The notes under the pieces were generated by a model that saw only the letters and a list, made by a program, of their open reading frames with translations, had not been told where the DNA came from and did no database searches. Source: Candidatus Omnitrophota bacterium (lineage in GTDB: Bacteria; Omnitrophota; Gorgyraeia; Gygaellales; Profunditerraquicolaceae). From it: 33,001 nt of DNA. Position numbers and translations under genes: made by a program. The DNA lies in contig CAIRWO010000149.1 in assembly GCA_903882345.1 (NCBI GenBank), positions 1-33,001 on the forward strand, written 5' to 3'. Numbering within the stretch: the stretch's first letter is position 1; each line of letters starts with the position of its first letter. This document shows positions 5,880 to 32,491 of the stretch, piece after piece.

Positions 5880-7123
5880 ACATTGGAAAACTTAAACAAA
5901 TGAAAATTACCGAGCTCAACAAGCTGGCAAAAGAATTGAATGTCAACGGCATGAGCGGGCTTAAGAAGCAGGACCTGATATTTAAGATCTTGCAGGGGCA
6001 GGCAGAAAAAGAAGGGCTGATGTTCGGGGAAGGGATATTGGAGATCCTTCCGGAAGGGTTCGGTTTTTTAAGGAGCCCGAACTACAATTATCTGCCTTGT
6101 CCGGATGACATATACATTTCTCCGTCGCAGATCAGGAAATTCGACCTGCGCACGGGAGACACGGTGAGCGGTGAAATCCGTCCGCCTAAAGAGGGAGAAA
6201 AATATTTTGCCCTGCTTAAGGTGCAGGCGGTGAATTTTGAAAATCCCGAAGATGTAAAAGAGAAAATACTCTTTGATAATCTTACGCCGGTTTATCCGCG
6301 GGAACACTTTGTCCTAGAGACTAACCCTAAAGAGGTATCGATGCGCATAATGGACCTTTTAGCGCCTATCGGTAAGGGCCAGCGCGGCCTGATCGTCGCC
6401 CAGCCCTACAGCGGTAAAACCGTGCTGCTGCAGAAGATCGCCAACGCCATCACCACCAATCAACCCGACACGATACTGATCGTGCTCTTGATCGATGAGC
6501 GGCCGGAGGAAGTCACGGATATGCAGCGTAACGTAAAAGGCGAAGTAATATCCTCTACCTTTGACGAGCCGCCGGAAAGGCACGTCCAGGTTGCGGAAAT
6601 CGTCCTTGAGAAGGCTAAGCGGCTTGTCGAGCATAAGAGGGACGTCGTAGTACTTCTGGATAGCATCACGCGCCTGGCGCGCGCCTATAACTCCGTTGTG
6701 CCGCACAGCGGCAAGGTATTATCCGGAGGCATAGATTCCAACGCCCTGCAGAAACCCAAACGCTTTTTCGGAGCGGCACGCGCGATCGAAGAAGGCGGCA
6801 GCTTGACGATTATTGCCACCGCACTCGTAGATACGGGAAGCCGGATGGACGAAGTAATTTTTGAAGAGTTTAAGGGCACAGGTAACATGGAACTGCAGCT
6901 GGACAGGAATCTCTTCCAGCGCAGGATCTATCCGGCCATCGACATAAAACGTTCCAATACCCGTCATGAAGAATTGCTGCTTAAGCCGGACATTCTTCAG
7001 AAGGCCTGGATTTTGCGCAAGGTGCTTAATGAACTAAGTAACGTTGAGGCAATGGAGCTTTTGATCGAGAAACTGGCTAAGACAAAGAACAACGAGGAGT
7101 TTTTAGGGAGCATGAACCAATAG
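5867..7123 (+). CDS. rho: Transcription termination factor Rho
   Basis: A GTG start follows AAGGAGG. The product has an N-terminal Rho_N domain ([11 protein letters not shown]), an RNA-binding domain (GFGFLR), Walker A (GKT) and a RecA-like ATPase core. Confidence 0.95.
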
Positions 7124-7125
7124 AG

Positions 7126-7172
7126 ACACCCGAACCTATAGGATGGTTCGGTGTGCGTTTACTACGCAAGGA
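7126..7172 (+). repeat. Two-hairpin intercistronic element, copy A (rho-rpmE spacer)
   Basis: Hairpin 1 is ACACCCGAACC-TATAGGAT-GGTTCGGTGT. Hairpin 2 is TGCGT-TTACT-ACGCA. The element ends in AAGGA, which is the rpmE SD. The first 31 nt are identical to the copy at 24144. Confidence 0.75.
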
Positions 7173-7180
7173 GGTTTCAA

Positions 7181-7381
7181 ATGAAAGACAAGATTCATCC
7201 CAAGTATCAGGACTGTGTGATTGTTTGCGCATGCGGCAATACCATACATACCCGTTCGACAAAACCGAATATCCGGGTTGAGGTGTGCTCTAAATGCCAT
7301 CCTTTTTTCAGCGGTAAGCAAAAGTTCGTTGATTCCGCCGGTAGGGTAGATAAATTTATCAAGAAATACGCAAAGAAATAA
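7181..7381 (+). CDS. rpmE: 50S ribosomal protein L31 (Zn-ribbon type)
   Basis: MKDKIHPKY... carries CxC and CxxC cysteine pairs. The ATG at 7181 is preceded by AAGGAGG. The track start at 7151 (GTG) lies inside the repeat element and is unlikely. Confidence 0.9.
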
Positions 7382-12869: not shown

Positions 12870-13511
12870 ATGGCAAAAGTAAAAATATGCGGCATAACCA
12901 ATTCAGAAGATGCGTTGTTTTCAGCAGGATCCGGCTGCGATGCGCTGGGTTTTGTTTTTTATAAAAAGAGCCCCCGTTATATCCCCCCTGAAAAAGCCGC
13001 ACAAATAATCAAAGGATTACCTGCGGAGCTGATCAAGATCGGCGTATTCGTCAATTCCCGGGAAAAGACTATAAGACGGATCGCGCAATTGTGCGGGCTT
13101 GATACCTTACAGTTTCACGGCTCAGAATCTCCGGAATTCTGCCGCAGGTTCAAAGACAAAAAAATTATCAAGGCGTTCAGGGTAAAAGATAGATCGAGCC
13201 TGAAAAGTATCTTAAAATACAAAGTCTTTGCTTTCCTTTTTGACACTTTTAGCCGATCCCGCATCGGCGGCACGGGGAAAAAATTTAATTGGGAACTGGT
13301 TAGGCACATTGACGGCATAACGCGGCCGATATTCTTATCCGGCGGCTTAAATGAAAAAAATGTCAGAGGCGCGATCAAGGCGGTGCATCCGGATTGGGTT
13401 GACGCGTCCAGCTCTCTGGAGGTTTCTCCCGGCAGGAAAGACCAGAATAAAGTAAAAAAGTTTATCGTCGCCGCGAAGAAAGGTAAGAGCAAGAGGACCG
13501 TTTCCTTATAA
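12870..13511 (+). CDS. trpF: Phosphoribosylanthranilate isomerase
   Basis: KVKICGIT, LGFVFYKKSPRYI and LSGGL are present. The last six sense codons plus the stop lie within the left arm of the 19-bp inverted repeat. Confidence 0.85.
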   Translation: MAKVKICGITNSEDALFSAGSGCDALGFVFYKKSPRYIPPEKAAQIIKGLPAELIKIGVFVNSREKTIRRIAQLCGLDTLQFHGSESPEFCRRFKDKKIIKAFRVKDRSSLKSILKYKVFAFLFDTFSRSRIGGTGKKFNWELVRHIDGITRPIFLSGGLNEKNVRGAIKAVHPDWVDASSSLEVSPGRKDQNKVKKFIVAAKKGKSKRTVSL

Positions 13512-13660
13512 CTGTATACGTAGTAATGAGTTTTGTAGGAACTGTCCCTGGGGGACATTTCTAAAATAATCTTTTTATGTTAGTAGAGTAACTTAATAGG
13601 GAGGGGGGACAGTTCCATAGGAACTTATTGTTATTTAATGGGTTATAAGGAAACGGTCCT
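13494..13660. repeat. Perfect 19-bp inverted repeats (AGGACCGTTTCCTTATAAC at 13494-13512, its complement at 13642-13660) enclosing a 129-nt AT-rich core with nested inverted repeats
   Basis: I read this directly from the sequence. The nested 11-bp pair is GGAACTGTCCC (13538-13548) and GGGACAGTTCC (13606-13616). Competing local hairpins are TGTCCC-TGG-GGGACA and GTTCC-ATA-GGAAC. Confidence 0.7.
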
Positions 13661-23181: not shown

Positions 23182-23691
23182 ATGAAAGACAACAGAGTTA
23201 TATATAAAGGCAGGCTGATCAGCCTGGCGGCAAGGATCGTAAGGCTGCCGAATAAATTTATTGCGCACATTGAGGTAATCACGCATCCGGGCGCAGCGCT
23301 GGTGGTCCCTTTTTTAAGCAGGGATAAAATAATCCTTCTGCGTCAGTTACGGCCGGTGATCAGGGCTTATTTATATGAGCTGCCGGCCGGTACGCTTAAA
23401 AAGGATGAGACTGTGCTTTCCTGCGGCCGCAGGGAAATCGTGGAAGAGACCGGTTACCGCGCAAAAAAGTTTACCCGGCTGGGCTATATTTATCCTGTGC
23501 CGGGGTATTCTACGGAAAAAATCGTCATCTTTAAGGCAGAAGGCCTGTCTAAGGAAAATGCGCAGCTAGATAAGGATGAAATTATCGAGAGCCTTATCGT
23601 TACGCGCAAACAGTTGAAGGCGATGTTCGCGAAAGGAAAAATTGTCGATGCAAAGACTATCTGTGCGCTTACGCTGTGCGGGTGGCTGTAA
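23182..23691 (+). CDS. NUDIX hydrolase (ADP-ribose pyrophosphatase-like)
   Basis: It has the Nudix box LPAGTLKKDETVLSCGRREIVEETGY. Confidence 0.8.
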   Translation: MKDNRVIYKGRLISLAARIVRLPNKFIAHIEVITHPGAALVVPFLSRDKIILLRQLRPVIRAYLYELPAGTLKKDETVLSCGRREIVEETGYRAKKFTRLGYIYPVPGYSTEKIVIFKAEGLSKENAQLDKDEIIESLIVTRKQLKAMFAKGKIVDAKTICALTLCGWL

Positions 23692-25396
23692 AAACATACT
23701 GATCCTCGTCGTACTGACTTATTTTTTCTTTTGTTTTGGTAACGGCATAATCAGCCTTAGCAATCCGGATGAAGTTTTTTATGCCGGCACGGCAAAAGAG
23801 ATGATCAACCAGCACAGCTGGATGACGCCTTATTTATTCGGCCAGCCGCAATTTGAAAAGCCGGTATTTTTATACTGGATGCTGCGGATCGCCTTTATGA
23901 TTTTCGGTATTGGAAGTTTTGCCGGCCGTTTCTTTCCGGCAGTATTCGCTTCCCTGGGGGTAGTTGCGGTTTACCTTTTCTCGCTGATAGCATTCAAGGA
24001 TGAAAAGAAGGCATTCTTTACCGGCTTGGTTTTGATGTCCTCAGGGCTCTATATCGGGCTGGCGCGGACAATTTTTACGGATATGATTTTTTCCGTATTT
24101 ATCCTTTTATCGCTGCTAGCGTTTTTCTGGGGGTATGCGCGGGCACCCGAACCTATAGGATGGTTCGGTGTGCGCTTGTTGCGCAAGGAAAAGAAGGCCG
24201 GCGGTATCCTCTTATTTTTTGTTTTTTCCGCTTTAGCGGTCTTGACCAAGGGGCCGCTGGGATTTTTTATCCCGTTTATGGCGATAGTGATTTTTCTTGC
24301 GCTAAAGAAAGAGCTGAAATTTATCTTTTCGAAAGCAACGCTGTGGGGTCTGTTGGTTTTTATTCTGATCGCTTTTCCCTGGTACCTGCTGATGATCAAA
24401 AAATACGGCTCTAGCTTTACCCACGAGTTTTTTTATAATGACCACATCCGCCGGATATTCGAGGCAGAACATAGTTCAAACGACACTTGGCATTTTTATC
24501 CTTTCGCAATGGTTTGGGCGATGTTCCCCTGGAGCGCGTTTGTAGTTATTTCCCTGCTCGGCCTGTATAAGCATATAAGGAAGGCAGGGGAGCCAGTCTA
24601 CCTTTTTCTTGCCTCTTGGATTGCCGCAGTCTTTCTTATTTTTCAACCCTGCCATTCTAAGCTGGTAAGCTACATCTTCCCGATGTTTCCCGCGCTGGCC
24701 ATACTTAGCGCCGACCTTATTTATCGCGGGGCAGCGCAAAATCAAAGGCCACGCCTTGTATTTTCCGCTTTTTTGCTCACGGTATTGGCGCTTGTTGTTT
24801 CATACGTTGGCTTGGCCGTGGGTTCGGTTTTATTTTCCCGCTATATTACGACGTATTTGCCGAACAAGCTGCCGGTTTATATTTTATTAGCTCTGCTTTT
24901 TATCTTGGTCATACTGTGTTCGGTTTTTATCGCGTGCCGCAGGCTGCTGAAAACGGCCTGCGTATTGATGCTTTTTATCCCCGTGCTTTTTTCTATCGTG
25001 CCCCAGGTCAGCAAATATATCGATCCCTACCTTTCATCGCGTGATATCTGCCGCTACCTTCAGGATAATTATAAGCTCGACAATACGATATTGGTCTCTA
25101 AATTTTTTACCCGCGGGGTAAGATATTATACGGAAAAAAAAGTAGCGGTAATCGACATCCCGGGAAATGGTTTTTTTAGCCCGCACCCCATAGCTTTTCT
25201 TAATTCCGACAGTAAGGTCCTGGATCTTTTACGCCGGCAGCCGGTTACATATTGCGTCCTTAAGAAAACGGCGCTACAGGATATCCAACGTTTCAGCAAT
25301 GAATTTGACTATAAGGTCTTGAAGGTCATCGGCAACGAGTATTTAGTCAGGATCAAGCCGAGAACATTGACAATAGCGGGAAGGGGAGTAGAATAA
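23642..25396 (+). CDS. Glycosyltransferase family 39 (ArnT / PMT_2-like lipid-linked sugar transferase)
   Basis: PDEVFYAGTAKEMINQHSWMTPYLFGQPQFEKPVFLYW resembles the ArnT N-terminal loop. The product has more than 10 TM segments. The start is TTG 23642 or ATG 23648, both overlapping the Nudix gene. It contains repeat copy B in frame. Confidence 0.8.
   Translation: MSMQRLSVRLRCAGGCKNILILVVLTYFFFCFGNGIISLSNPDEVFYAGTAKEMINQHSWMTPYLFGQPQFEKPVFLYWMLRIAFMIFGIGSFAGRFFPAVFASLGVVAVYLFSLIAFKDEKKAFFTGLVLMSSGLYIGLARTIFTDMIFSVFILLSLLAFFWGYARAPEPIGWFGVRLLRKEKKAGGILLFFVFSALAVLTKGPLGFFIPFMAIVIFLALKKELKFIFSKATLWGLLVFILIAFPWYLLMIKKYGSSFTHEFFYNDHIRRIFEAEHSSNDTWHFYPFAMVWAMFPWSAFVVISLLGLYKHIRKAGEPVYLFLASWIAAVFLIFQPCHSKLVSYIFPMFPALAILSADLIYRGAAQNQRPRLVFSAFLLTVLALVVSYVGLAVGSVLFSRYITTYLPNKLPVYILLALLFILVILCSVFIACRRLLKTACVLMLFIPVLFSIVPQVSKYIDPYLSSRDICRYLQDNYKLDNTILVSKFFTRGVRYYTEKKVAVIDIPGNGFFSPHPIAFLNSDSKVLDLLRRQPVTYCVLKKTALQDIQRFSNEFDYKVLKVIGNEYLVRIKPRTLTIAGRGVE
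24143..24189 (+). repeat. Two-hairpin element, copy B, embedded in frame in the GT39 CDS
   Basis: CACCCGAACCTATAGGATGGTTCGGTGTGCG is identical to copy A. Hairpin 2 is TGCGC-TTGTT-GCGCA, followed by AAGGA. The element translates as ...[16 protein letters not shown].... Confidence 0.75.
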
Positions 25397-25976: not shown

Positions 25977-27221
25977 GTGGAAATAAAAAAAATTGCTATT
26001 GTCGGTGCAGGCCCTGCAGGCATGATGGCGGCAATCCGCGCGGCCGGGCTAAAACAGGACGTAACGCTTTTTGAAAGAAATCCCACCTTAGGCAGGAAAC
26101 TCCTTCTAAGCGGCAAAGGCCGCTGTAATCTTACCAATACTTGCGATTTTGATTCATTCATCGAAAAATTTTCCGGCAACGGCCAGTTTTTACGGGATGC
26201 TTTCCGTAAATTCTTCAATCACGAATTGATGCGTTTCTTTGAAGAGAGGGGCCTTAAGCTGAGAGTCGAAAGGCAATTACGCGTTTTTCCTTCCACTGAC
26301 AGTTCTGCCAGCGTGCTGGCTGTGCTTAAGCGCGAACTGCTAAAAAATAAAGTAAAAGTTTTGCAGGATTGCCGGATTAACGCTATCATAGCAGAAAACG
26401 GCACAGCCAAAGGAATTTCATTTTCCGGCGCCAGGCATTTTTCTGCCGATAGAATAATCCTCGCTACAGGCGGGGTGTCGTACAGTTTTACCGGCTCAAG
26501 CGGAGATGGATTGGAGATTGCCCGCAGCCTGGGGCATCGTATAGTGCCGCTGCGGCCGGGATTATCGCCCCTTATAATCAGGCAAGGTTATCCAAAATTA
26601 CTTGAGGGGCTTACATTGAAGAATATCCGCCTTAAAATAAGCGACGAAAAAAAAGAAATTATTTCGCCTGTAGGAGAATTGCTTTTTACCGGCCGGGGCA
26701 TTTCCGGGCCGCTGGTTTTTTCTTTAAGCGCGAAAATCGGCGAGTGGCTAGAGAAGTCGCATAATTTATATATGGAAATCGATTTAAAGCCGGGATTGTC
26801 CTCTGAACAGTTAAACAGCCGTCTTCTGCGGGAATTTAAATCCAACCCCAAGAAGAACGCAAGGAATACGCTTAAAATTTTGCTGCCGCAGCGCTTGATC
26901 GATCTATCTATGGATATCTTAAAGCTTAGCCCGGATAAAAAAGTAAGCCAGATCACTCAGGCAGAACGCCTAAAAATCATAAGTTTACTAAAAGCCTTTC
27001 GTATGGACATTACCAGCTTAGCCTCTATCGAAGAAGGCATGGTTACGCGGGGCGGGGTAAGCTTGAAAGATATAAATCCGCGGACTATGGAGTCTCGTTT
27101 GGTTAAAGGGCTTTATTTTGCCGGGGAGATCATTGACGTAGACGCCGATACCGGCGGGTTTAATCTTCAGGCGGCTTTTTCCACCGGATACCTTGCGGGG
27201 GAAAGCGCTGCCCTATCCTAA
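25977..27221 (+). CDS. NAD(P)/FAD-dependent oxidoreductase, HI0933/YhiN (BaiN-like) family
   Basis: It has a GTG start and the dinucleotide fold IAIVGAGPAGMMAA. LLSGKGRCNLTN and the C-terminal YFAGEIIDVDADTGGFNLQ are also present. Confidence 0.8.
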   Translation: MEIKKIAIVGAGPAGMMAAIRAAGLKQDVTLFERNPTLGRKLLLSGKGRCNLTNTCDFDSFIEKFSGNGQFLRDAFRKFFNHELMRFFEERGLKLRVERQLRVFPSTDSSASVLAVLKRELLKNKVKVLQDCRINAIIAENGTAKGISFSGARHFSADRIILATGGVSYSFTGSSGDGLEIARSLGHRIVPLRPGLSPLIIRQGYPKLLEGLTLKNIRLKISDEKKEIISPVGELLFTGRGISGPLVFSLSAKIGEWLEKSHNLYMEIDLKPGLSSEQLNSRLLREFKSNPKKNARNTLKILLPQRLIDLSMDILKLSPDKKVSQITQAERLKIISLLKAFRMDITSLASIEEGMVTRGGVSLKDINPRTMESRLVKGLYFAGEIIDVDADTGGFNLQAAFSTGYLAGESAALS

Positions 27222-27225
27222 AAAC

Positions 27226-28608
27226 ATGAGAAAGATCTATCTGGCATCCGATTCTAAAGCAAGAAAGAAGCTCCTGAAAATTTTCGGCCTGAACTTTAAG
27301 GTCCTGCCGAGCAAAATCAGGGAAAAAACTGCAGCTGGCAGCCTTTCTTATACGCAGCTTGTCAAAACAAATGCCCTTAAGAAGGCAGCCGATGTCGCGT
27401 CCAGGGTTAAAAACGGAGTTGTCATCGCGGCGGATACGATCGTTGTCTGCGGCGGCAAAGTCTTCGGCAAGCCCAAAGATCTAAGCGGGGCGCGGAAAAT
27501 GCTAAAAGTCCTGGCAGGCAAACCCCAGTGGCTTTACACGGGCCTGGCAATAATTGATAAAGACAACAAAAAGGTAAAGACCGCCTGCGAAAAAACAAAG
27601 ATCTATATGGATAAGCTGACGGATAAAGAAATAGATAATTATTTCGCCGCTGTTTCGCCGCTGGATAAAGCAGGCAGTTTCGATATCCAGGGCAAAGGCG
27701 CATTTTTTATCCGGCGTATCGAAGGCTGCTTTTATAATGTTGTCGGCCTGCCGCTAAGAAGGCTGTATTTAATACTTAAGAGCCTTGATCTAAAAGTATT
27801 CATGTTTTTGTTTTTTCTTTTGCCTTTTGCCTTTTGCCTTTTGCTCTCCGGCTGTACGACAGAATATAACACTGTTACCGGAGAAGAAGAGACCTATTTC
27901 TACAGTACAGACAGGGAAGTGGCAATAGGGGAGTCGATCAACCGGGCGGTGGAAAAAGAATATAAATTTGTGGAAGACCCTCTGGTAGAAAAACGCGTGA
28001 AAGATATCGGTGAAAAAATCGCTGCTGTCTGCGACAGAAAAGAAATTACCTATCATTTTAAGGTCTTAGACGATGATGAAGTAAACGCCGTATCCCTGCC
28101 CGGCGGGTTTGTCTATATAAATAAGGGATTGATCGAAAAGGTGGCTAACGATGATGAGCTGGCAGGGGTAATCGCACACGAAGTCGGCCATATTGTTGCG
28201 CGCCACAGCATAAAGAAGCTGCAAGGAGAGATAGGATATTCTATATTAAGGCTTTTGGTTGCGGCTGCGCCGCGGTCCGGCGGCGAGGTAGGCGGAGCAG
28301 CAGACGCTGCCTTTACCGAATTGATGCTGGGTTATTCCAGGGAAGACGAGCTGCTTGCCGACCAGCTGGGCGCGCGTTACGCAAAGCTAGCCGGATATAA
28401 CCCCCGCGGGATGCTTGAGTTTCTTCTAAAATTACAGGCCATAGACAAGCGCAGGCCGCTTGCCCCGAAGTCATATTTTAAAACTCATCCTTATGTTCCG
28501 GACAGGATCCGCGTAGTAAAGGAAGAACTGGGAGAGGGGATGAATTTTAAAGATTACATAAATATTGAGCAAGTCTCGCACGGAGTTAAACAGGATCCGC
28601 ATGAATAG
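27226..28608 (+). CDS. maf: Single ORF joining a Maf-like nucleoside-triphosphate pyrophosphatase domain (about 27226-27801) to an M48 peptidase with a lipoprotein signal
   Basis: The Maf part runs from MRKIYLASDSKARKKLL through GSFDIQG to VVGLPL. No stop codon occurs before M at 27802. The ATG at 27226 lies just after the upstream stop and is preferred over the track start at 27193. Confidence 0.6.
   Translation: MRKIYLASDSKARKKLLKIFGLNFKVLPSKIREKTAAGSLSYTQLVKTNALKKAADVASRVKNGVVIAADTIVVCGGKVFGKPKDLSGARKMLKVLAGKPQWLYTGLAIIDKDNKKVKTACEKTKIYMDKLTDKEIDNYFAAVSPLDKAGSFDIQGKGAFFIRRIEGCFYNVVGLPLRRLYLILKSLDLKVFMFLFFLLPFAFCLLLSGCTTEYNTVTGEEETYFYSTDREVAIGESINRAVEKEYKFVEDPLVEKRVKDIGEKIAAVCDRKEITYHFKVLDDDEVNAVSLPGGFVYINKGLIEKVANDDELAGVIAHEVGHIVARHSIKKLQGEIGYSILRLLVAAAPRSGGEVGGAADAAFTELMLGYSREDELLADQLGARYAKLAGYNPRGMLEFLLKLQAIDKRRPLAPKSYFKTHPYVPDRIRVVKEELGEGMNFKDYINIEQVSHGVKQDPHE
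27802..28608 (+). CDS. M48-family Zn metallopeptidase lipoprotein (possible internal start in the same frame)
   Basis: MFLFFLLPFAFCLLLSGC carries a lipobox (LSGC). The HEVGHIVARH HExxH motif is present. I see no obvious SD upstream of 27802. Confidence 0.55.
   Translation: MFLFFLLPFAFCLLLSGCTTEYNTVTGEEETYFYSTDREVAIGESINRAVEKEYKFVEDPLVEKRVKDIGEKIAAVCDRKEITYHFKVLDDDEVNAVSLPGGFVYINKGLIEKVANDDELAGVIAHEVGHIVARHSIKKLQGEIGYSILRLLVAAAPRSGGEVGGAADAAFTELMLGYSREDELLADQLGARYAKLAGYNPRGMLEFLLKLQAIDKRRPLAPKSYFKTHPYVPDRIRVVKEELGEGMNFKDYINIEQVSHGVKQDPHE
27817..27844 (+). repeat. Tandem heptanucleotide repeat (CTTTTGC)x4 inside the signal-peptide coding region
   Basis: Four perfect consecutive 7-nt units were read directly at 27817-23, 27824-30, 27831-37 and 27838-44. 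Confidence 0.9.
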
Positions 28609-30100: not shown

Positions 30101-30109
30101 GTGCCTTAT

Positions 30110-30238
30110 ACATGCTTAATCCCTTAACAGGGAGCGGGGGAACCAGGAGCAGGATTTCAATAATCTTGGGGCGGATATCCGGTAATTGCGGATTAAGGTT
30201 ACTCAACCTGAGCCCGACAGCTAACCTCGTAAGCTCAT
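30110..30238 (+). promoter_or_regulatory. c-di-AMP riboswitch aptamer (ydaO/yuaA class)
   Basis: From memory of the ydaO consensus, it has GCTTAATC (30114-21), GGGAGCGGGGGAACC (30130-44), TTGGGGCGGATATCC (30166-80) and CCCGACAGCTAACCTCGTAAGC (30213-34). P1 forms as GCTTA/TAAGC. It lies upstream of a K+ transporter operon. Confidence 0.8.
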
Positions 30239-30251
30239 AACAAGAGAATAC

Positions 30252-30283
30252 ACCAGAGAAAGTGTTCTCTGGTTTTCTTTTAG
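30252..30283 (+). terminator. Intrinsic terminator (expression platform of the riboswitch)
   Basis: A 9-bp stem ACCAGAGAA / TTCTCTGGT with loop AGTG is followed by TTTCTTTT. Confidence 0.75.
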
Positions 30284-30320
30284 TGAAAAAGACGCCAATC
30301 CATCCTATAGGATTGGGTGT
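30274..30320 (-). repeat. Two-hairpin element, copy E, inverted orientation
   Basis: The minus strand reads ACACCCAATCC-TATAGGAT-GGATTGGCGT, then CTTTT-TCACT-AAAAG. The loop and the ACACCC are conserved and the 5-bp variable stem is fully swapped. There is no AAGGA and no downstream gene on the minus strand. Confidence 0.5.
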
Positions 30321-30557: not shown

Positions 30558-30603
30558 CACCCGAACCTATCGGATGGTTCGGTGTCCATAATCTATGGAA
30601 GGA
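30557..30603 (+). repeat. Two-hairpin element, copy C (spacer before kdpF)
   Basis: Hairpin 1 is ACACCCGAACC-TATCGGAT-GGTTCGGTGT. Hairpin 2 is TCCATA-ATC-TATGGA. The element ends in AAGGA, 8 nt before the kdpF ATG. Confidence 0.75.
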
Positions 30604-32443: not shown

Positions 32444-32491
32444 CACCCCGCGCTTATCGGATTTGCGCGGGTGTGCCCTTCTGGGCAAGGA
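32443..32491 (+). repeat. Two-hairpin element, copy D (kdpA-kdpB spacer), the most diverged copy
   Basis: Hairpin 1 is ACACCCCGCGC-TTATCGGATTT-GCGCGGGTGT. Hairpin 2 is TGCCC-TTCT-GGGCA. The element ends in AAGGA, 6 nt before the kdpB ATG, and starts on the last A of the kdpA TAA. Confidence 0.65.

Follow-up and report, generated by a model that had tools for sequence, protein, structure and literature searches.

How does a copy of a short dispersed repeat come to lie in the reading frame of a membrane glycosyltransferase (GT), and what becomes of the protein? The question is raised by a 33,001-nt stretch of DNA from a Candidatus Omnitrophota bacterium (NCBI GenBank assembly GCA_903882345.1, contig CAIRWO010000149.1, positions 1 to 33,001; hereafter the window), in which a 42-nt unit made of two adjacent hairpins sits within a gene for an ArnT-like enzyme (the GT gene). 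An earlier note on this DNA had read the unit as an in-frame insertion of a palindromic element that forms a loop in the protein, and had compared it with the elements of Rickettsia. The comparisons described below lead us to the view that 24144-24185 is very probably an in-frame insertion of a mobile-type repeat, tolerated in a loop; this estimate covers the tolerated in-frame insertion and leaves the enzymatic mechanism outside its scope.

Fourteen extra codons in a glycosyltransferase gene

Whole-genome searches of 40 relatives yielded 12 orthologues covering the region, and in every one of them exactly 14 residues are missing from the interval that separates WGY-xx from the K/R-rich stretch before GILLFF. 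Among them is the orthologue from the same-genus genome G001, which has 71% amino acid identity. Comparison with the orthologues at the DNA level gives a net gain of 42 nt in the window, and the stretch missing from them coincides with the two hairpins of the unit. Metagenomic homologues P0002 through P0117 also lack the 14 residues; in the closest of these, P0002 (88% amino acid and 89% nucleotide identity; locus L130), the empty site reads TGGGGGTATGC^GCGCAAAGAAAAG. The homologue alignment that the earlier note had proposed as a check thus finds the 14 residues to be lineage-specific and coincident with the element. The note's figure of about 16 residues was not borne out, the insert being 14 codons or 42 nt, but the exact match to the element was.

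Hairpin 1 of the unit (24144..24170, forward strand, 27 nt) consists of CACC-C(bulge)-GAACC, the loop TATAGGAT and GGTTC-GGTG; its RNA fold was computed, and it matches 7127-7153 exactly. Hairpin 2 (24171..24185, forward strand, 15 nt) reads T-GCGC / TTGTT / GCGC-A. The 27 and 15 nt together make the 42 nt, or 14 codons, which in codon register are 24143..24184 (forward strand) and encode residues 168-181 of the 584-residue open reading frame (ORF). Directly 3' of the unit lies AAGGAA (24185..24190, forward strand), a Shine-Dalgarno (SD)-like sequence formed here by Lys-Glu codons, which we infer to be a target-site motif and not a working ribosome-binding site. The AAGGA that had been counted as part of the element is most likely host or target sequence outside the insert. 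As first noticed from the letters alone, the 31-mer CACCCGAACCTATAGGATGGTTCGGTGTGCG at 24144-24174 is identical to that at 7127-7157, in the interval between the rho stop and the rpmE start; a further copy with three mismatches lies at 30558-30588, and shuffling gave no copies by chance (0 in 100 shuffles).

The ORF that hosts the unit (23642..25396, forward strand) has no internal stops and encodes 584 residues from a TTG, with the translation as quoted, in line with the uninterrupted 584-codon frame described before. In database gene calls the start is the ATG at 23648, which makes the gene 23648..25396 (forward strand) and its product 582 residues long. The product is a PMT/PMT_2 membrane glycosyltransferase (NCBI 'GT39') of the GT-C fold, similar to ArnT. 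Its Pfam matches to PMT (6.9e-12) and PMT_2 (7.7e-07) both exceed the cut-offs, and its 766 homologues at E<=1e-30, mostly from Candidatus Omnitrophota, carry the name 'glycosyltransferase family 39' or 'ArnT-like'. A profile search against the PDB matched ArnT (E=1.3e-38), and Foldseek aligned the model of the protein to 5F15 with template-modelling (TM) scores of 0.76/0.81, the ArnT structures 5F15 and 5EZM spanning 0.72-0.81. D41 and E42 (582-residue form) are invariant, and every family-invariant column is intact. The protein therefore has the domain, the D-E pair in the first periplasmic loop and the multi-helix fold of a PMT/ArnT-like GT-C enzyme. On the opposite strand, the ORFs at 24049-24399 and 7077-7262 have one 11-residue peptide in common because the same DNA repeat underlies both, a trivial outcome that had been correctly anticipated.

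The site is also found with more than one unit. The 90% cluster of the window protein includes 597-residue forms (P0001, P0121, P0122), which are encoded on seven or more contigs of other ENA assemblies, including one of 116 kb. One such locus, L132 (ENA ERZ18623327 scaffold_3775), is 99.6% identical to the window over the gene and 99.8% identical over 6.9 kb, and both of its insert junctions are identical to those of the window. In L132 a second unit is nested in the loop of hairpin 1, as CACCCGAACC-TAAAAGG[CACCTTGCCCTATCGGATGGGCAAGTG-TCCCGCCTACTGCGGGA]AT-GGTTCGGTG (region L132:2620-2730); it adds 45 nt, or 15 codons, and keeps the frame, which gives the 597-residue allele. The same protein loop thus occurs with no unit in the relative of 89% nucleotide identity, with one in the window and with two in strains of 99.6-99.8% identity, which shows that the GT site has recently been active in natural populations. 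This series of wild strains, up to 99.8% identical, amounts to a natural experiment on the tolerance and acquisition of loop sequence.

The same alleles bear on whether the GT copy could be an assembly artefact, with the repeat mis-joined into the gene. A short-k assembler could be led astray by the 31 nt that this copy has in common with a second locus of its contig, and some assemblies (P0124, P0125) end exactly at the element. Against this, both junctions recur in independent assemblies from other samples, the reading frame is preserved, and the one- and two-unit haplotypes differ at further nearby single-nucleotide polymorphisms. There are seven substitutions in the gene between the window and L132 alleles, four of them within or just 3' of the element. 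Because near-identical other assemblies have the same junctions, we regard an artefact as ruled out for all practical purposes.

The contigs of P0124 (628 bp) and P0125 (3493 bp) stop at the element as expected of a repeat, and a truncated ORF on a contig that ends there receives a spurious start (MRLLHKEKK...). The repeat therefore fragments metagenomic contigs and can make gene callers split genes or misplace starts.

Position of the insert in the protein

An AlphaFold2 model was built with 55 homologues (residue numbers are those of the 582-residue form) and reached a mean predicted local distance difference test (pLDDT) score of 84.9 and a predicted TM score of 0.86. The insert is modelled as coil between helices 143-164 and 177-201, with pLDDT below 50 at 169-178. 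The expectation that the insert lies between two hydrophobic segments and likely forms a loop agrees with this low-confidence coil between helices. Together with its absence from the 12 orthologues and the closest metagenomic relatives, the coil supports the in-frame palindromic insertion that the earlier note had envisaged.

The preceding helix begins at a conserved aspartate, D145 of the 584-residue ORF (D143 of the 582-residue form). Its counterpart in the alignment is the Asp of the ArnT TLDM motif, which we take to be a catalytic residue on the periplasmic side. The loop itself is strongly basic. On the alignment with ArnT and the positive-inside rule, the insert would lie in a cytoplasmic loop, opposite the periplasmic catalytic face. 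Because the extra peptide would then be placed in a disordered loop away from that face, the enzyme is probably still functional, and the insert is probably tolerated and close to neutral.

In all orthologues the loop at the insertion site contains many Lys, Arg and Glu residues, and codons of the AAG-GAA type therefore recur in it. The unit may have landed off-target here, at an SD-like AAGGAA formed by Lys-Glu codons of this K/R-rich loop. Read from the sequence, the unit is free of stops in two of its three sense frames, including the one used here. With a length of 42 nt, or 14 codons, and no stop in the frame used, the unit would have left the gene open.

A different view of the same peptide is that its 14 residues are an adaptive, exapted segment, for example an amphipathic one at the membrane interface. 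PIGWFGV with its flanking Arg could lie at such an interface, and the frame is open in the one-unit and two-unit alleles alike. However, 14-15 codons without a stop have a chance of about 0.5 in the absence of selection, the peptide is absent from all other homologues and is modelled as low-confidence coil, and its length varies (14 or 29 residues) among strains that are 99.8% identical. We consider an adaptive peptide very unlikely.

The earlier note had also offered an alternative in which the element with its AAGGA directs internal translation of the 3' two-thirds of the gene. No ATG, GTG or TTG occurs within about 35 nt 3' of AAGGA at the GT site. Additionally, both the PMT domain match in Pfam and the match to the ArnT fold run across the site, as for one continuous protein. 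An internal translation start after AAGGA was therefore rejected.

The repeat family and its insertion site

The GT copy belongs to a family. Using a pattern that specified structure only and required no SD, we found 24 copies of hairpin 1 in the genome to which the window belongs (G000; 1.25 Mb in 218 contigs), and a covariance model found about 33 copies at E<1e-5. Covariation was assessed in an alignment of 19 copies from this genome under the structure ((((.(((((........)))))))))(.((((.....))))), in which 99.6% of alignment cells are paired and 9 of 14 pairs have compensatory changes; none of 500 shuffles reached that value, and structures slid by one position paired only 30-39%. In hairpin 1 all cells (100%) are paired across the 19 copies and six of nine pairs show compensatory changes, as do three of five in hairpin 2. 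The conserved parts are the CACC-C / GGTG frame with its bulged C, the loop TAWMGGAT and the hairpin-2 loop YTTNCT.

The unit was found in 23 of 24 genera of the same family, at up to 43 copies per genome. An even sample across the phylum gave matches in 22 of 201 genomes, almost all of them members of the same family or class; they include 14 of the 17 family members sampled, a single genome from a different family of the order and six from other families of the class. Rfam 15 gave no match for the element: none reached the gathering threshold when the whole window was searched, and 7080-7220 gave none at E<=10, so a known RNA family was rejected. In the literature searched we found no description of such repeats for Omnitrophota. 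The unit is thus a lineage-specific, dispersed two-hairpin repeat of 42-43 nt that behaves as mobile DNA.

Evidence of mobility comes from sites with syntenic flanks in G000 and the nearly whole congener G001. Of about 20 comparable sites, three are occupied in both genomes. At the others G001 is empty yet retains the SD, often with a recognisably orthologous spacer. At C25, for example, TAACAA-GGAGGAAAAAG in G001 corresponds to TAACAG[unit]AGGAGGAATAAG in G000, and at C183 AAAAAC-AAGGAGCCGGACAATG corresponds to CCAAA[unit]AAGGAGTCGGACAATG. The same filled/empty pattern is seen at C68, C143, C12, C87 and C180, the clean examples being C25, C183, C68, C143 and C12. The SD in the empty sites shows that the unit does not deliver it but inserts directly 5' of (A)GGAG, with a net gain of 42 or 43 nt. 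That the element brings its own SD was accordingly rejected as a general rule, given the orthologous SD and spacer in the empty G001 sites of C25, C183 and C12. An exception is C21 (G000 C21:845-901 versus G001 C1:33836-34361), where the congener lacks both the unit and the following AGGAGGAG; unlike at the other sites, the SD may have arrived there together with the unit.

The order of unit, SD and start codon holds at 23 of 29 placements in G000, where the orientation is strictly sense and the unit ends 0-1 nt before the SD, and at 13 of 22 in G001. Nested copies provide a second kind of site. At C9:149-249 the outer unit is orthologous to G001 C1:331303 and has gained 42 nt in its loop, just before GGAT. 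Nested copies are thereby shown to be real insertions just before GGAT in the hairpin-1 loop of older copies. The rule that fits the SD, loop and GT sites is insertion directly 5' of GGA, or 3' of TCC on the other strand. Two further ideas on the boundary were rejected: a target-site duplication of AGG or GG is not consistent across the filled/empty pairs, and derivation of the hairpin-2 3' arm from the target, hinted at by GCGC at the GT site and TGGGAT at C9, finds no match in the pairs at SD sites. These filled and empty sites form a clean set from which the insertion rule could be derived.

The GT copy is the sole unit inside a long ORF in its own genome, and among the 22 copies in G001 none lies convincingly inside an ORF. 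An apparent in-frame copy in a 630-residue ORF of G018 (L136) was rejected, as its composition looks like that of a shadow frame. A candidate second in-frame copy is present in G018 at C9:5421-5475 (L160), read as QHPGQSDAPVRASAQE in a 212-residue lipoprotein, N-terminal to a DUF1318 domain (E=4.9e-15).

Four sibling copies lie in the window. One, in the rho-rpmE spacer (7127..7168, forward strand), abuts the SD site of rpmE. The other three are in the kdp region: a copy 5' of the small ORF preceding kdpA (30558..30599, forward strand), a diverged copy in the kdpA/kdpB interval (32444..32488, forward strand; covariance-model match E=1e-8), and a copy in the opposite orientation that is not adjacent to an SD (30265..30319, reverse strand; E=8.7e-8). 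Upstream of the kdp genes, 30103-30251 holds a cyclic di-AMP (c-di-AMP) riboswitch (RF00379, 83.9 bits). Another kind of repeat positioned ahead of an SD site occurs at 13494-13660, a 167-nt element with 19-bp inverted repeats (AGGACCGTTTCCTTATAAC...) that ends just before the GGAG of the next gene.

Spread of the copies and comparison with known systems

Our best guess on the mechanism, at somewhat short of an even chance, is that the copies are moved in trans by a Y1 HUH transposase of the IS200 or REP-associated tyrosine transposase (RAYT) type, which would recognise the hairpins in single-stranded DNA and insert them 3' of TCC with no duplication. Y1_Tnp genes are present in 31 of 41 related genomes, with one in G000 and two in G001. 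Those of G000 and G001 (G000 C203, G001 C1:573623-574231 and G001 C4:60132-60620) are flanked by other inverted repeats, and no covariance-model match of the unit adjoins any of the Y1 loci listed. A RAYT-like adjacency of gene and repeat was rejected for this reason. The rho-rpmE spacer of G001 (C3 ~271700-272000) lacks the unit and holds a palindrome of about 85 nt, TTAGGGACGGTTCT...GGGGACA...AGAACCGTCCCTAA, which belongs to a second and longer palindromic family. This palindrome also flanks a Y1 (IS200/RAYT-like) gene of G001 (C4:60132-60620; also C1:504988-505084), and because the same repeat flanks that gene it looks like the gene's own miniature derivative.

Several observations weigh against a tolerated insertion of a mobile repeat, or limit how far it can be taken. 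The boundaries of the insert are uncertain by a few bases because GCGC is present on both sides. The closest empty site has AAAGAA instead of AAGGAA, so that an SD-like target at the GT site is something we infer. The cytoplasmic placement stands on the ArnT alignment and the positive-inside rule, not on coordinates, and the one-unit allele has been seen on no contig other than that of the window. Some 20% of copies have no SD next to them, so the insertion rule has exceptions. The unit has no linked transposase, the Y1 genes being flanked by unrelated inverted repeats, and the presence of Y1 correlates poorly with unit copy number. Finally, one doubly filled site (C1:744) differs between the two genomes by compensatory changes, and the family may therefore not be purely selfish. 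At this intergenic site both stems are affected, G000 (C1:744-800) and G001 (C1:320666-320722) having GGCCT/AGGCC versus GAACC/GGTTC and GCG/CGC versus GCAC/GTGC. These differences would fit either structural selection or re-insertion, with replacement by a new copy.

The unit could instead be mainly a functional cis-acting RNA module, either a 5' untranslated region (5'-UTR) insulator or stabiliser or a protein-binding leader, that spread by its usefulness; in that case the GT copy would be a stray or else a regulator of the GT mRNA via processing, stability or ribosome pausing. In keeping with this, the unit is strictly sense and closely spaced to the SD in the 23 of 29 placements, the stems covary around conserved loops and a conserved bulged C, the orthologously filled site differs by compensatory changes only, and one variant of hairpin 2, TCCCGC...GCGGGA, is able to base-pair with some of the SD. 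However, only 3 of about 20 sites are conserved between the congeners, the downstream genes are functionally unrelated, the element has no Rfam match, and the GT copy lacks a start codon after AAGGA. A leader of the CsrA type, with GGA in the loop and GGA in the SD, was rejected because PF02599 was not found in the genome of the window (84% complete), although the search did detect it in the controls; we keep the CsrA idea as a weak part of the RNA-function explanation. On balance we judge a primarily functional RNA module to be improbable.

Spread without any dedicated transposase, through recombination, gene conversion or template switching at AGGAG microhomology, seems to us similarly improbable. 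The unit's 3' boundary always falls at the shared AGGAG motif, no target-site duplication or terminal inverted repeat (TIR) is seen, and no transposase accompanies the unit; it also fits that, of the seven substitutions separating the two near-identical GT alleles, four lie in the element or just 3' of it. The 5' boundary (CACCC), however, is sharp and has no shared upstream homology, and the loop insertions and the coding Lys-Glu site have just GGA in common with the SD sites.

A longer shot still is that the unit is an active, site-specific miniature element which recognises the GGA core of SDs, and which possibly also serves as a portable 5'-UTR insulating or stabilising hairpin. Recognition could then involve single-stranded hairpin DNA and guide-like pairing, as in IS200/IS605. 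If so, ribosome-binding sites would be natural landing pads and the unit's own GGAT loop a decoy target, and Lys-Glu/Gly codons (AAG-GAA, GAA-GGA) would be off-targets in coding sequence. The 5'-UTR role, if true, would explain the persistence of the unit in genomes of 1.2-2 Mb.

Among known repeats, the Rickettsia elements and intragenic REPs come closest in behaviour to the insertion in the GT gene. The Rickettsia palindromic elements (RPEs) RPE-1 to RPE-10 (Ogata et al. 2000, summarised in PMC10969869) are described in that summary as about 100-150 bp long with a family-specific conserved peptide, and as dispersed palindromes found in frame in unrelated ORFs, in surface or loop regions compatible with function (PMC10969869). 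The GT copy resembles the RPEs so described in being an in-frame, read-through insertion of a dispersed palindromic repeat at a loop position of a protein gene. In contrast, the unit is 42-45 nt long, and its stems covary, so that the peptide is not conserved between copies. Intragenic copies are rare (1 of about 30 in its own genome and none clear among 22 in the congener), the usual site is directly 5' of an SD, and the host phylum is Omnitrophota.

Repetitive extragenic palindromic (REP) sequences are 20-40 bp long, carry a GTAG/CGTC tag and lie mostly downstream of coding regions, with some intragenic (Di Nocera et al. 2013, PMC3733652). Like REPs, the unit is a very short multi-copy palindrome whose stems vary while the structure is kept and some copies of which lie in genes; as in REP-RAYT systems, the genome has Y1 (RAYT-like) genes flanked by long inverted repeats (PMC3733652). 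Unlike REPs, it has no GTAG or CGTC tag on either strand of the consensus CACCC...GGTG-T...A, it consists of two different hairpins and not of a single palindrome or inverted pair, and it lies 5' of genes in the sense orientation. In contrast to systems of RAYTs and REP doublets forming hairpins (REPINs), no Y1 gene is flanked by the unit. The unit belongs neither to the RPEs nor to the REPs, since length, tags, position and transposase linkage all fail to agree. It also differs from a classical miniature inverted-repeat transposable element (MITE) in having two separate hairpins, no TIR and no consistent duplication in filled/empty pairs.

The ends of IS200/IS605 elements and of their gene-less derivatives, palindrome-associated transposable elements (PATEs), have two subterminal hairpins, one with a conserved extrahelical base, and insert in a fixed orientation beside a short fixed motif without target duplication. 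The unit would resemble such ends in its two hairpins, its bulged C, its orientation-specific abutment on (A)GGA at SD, loop and GT sites, and its lack of a target-site duplication. We found no autonomous parent with the unit's ends, and Y1_Tnp is present in most genomes of the family but unlinked to the unit. IS1397/ISKpn1-type elements are full insertion sequences with a transposase that insert in REP loops. The nested units are likewise mobile DNA in the loop of a palindromic repeat; unlike in that case, what has inserted is a further copy of the 42-45-nt repeat itself.

Rickettsia and some REPs already provide instances of palindromes inserted in frame, and the present case is extreme in its smallness, at 42 nt or 14 codons. 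Its target is also unusual, as the normal landing place is the base just before ribosome-binding sites.

Elsewhere in the window, 27193-28608 encodes Maf and an M48 peptidase as one ORF. The same arrangement is found in the strains of 99.8% identity (a 460-residue call), and in the relative of 89% nucleotide identity (L130:6557-7686) Maf and the M48 peptidase are called as separate genes.

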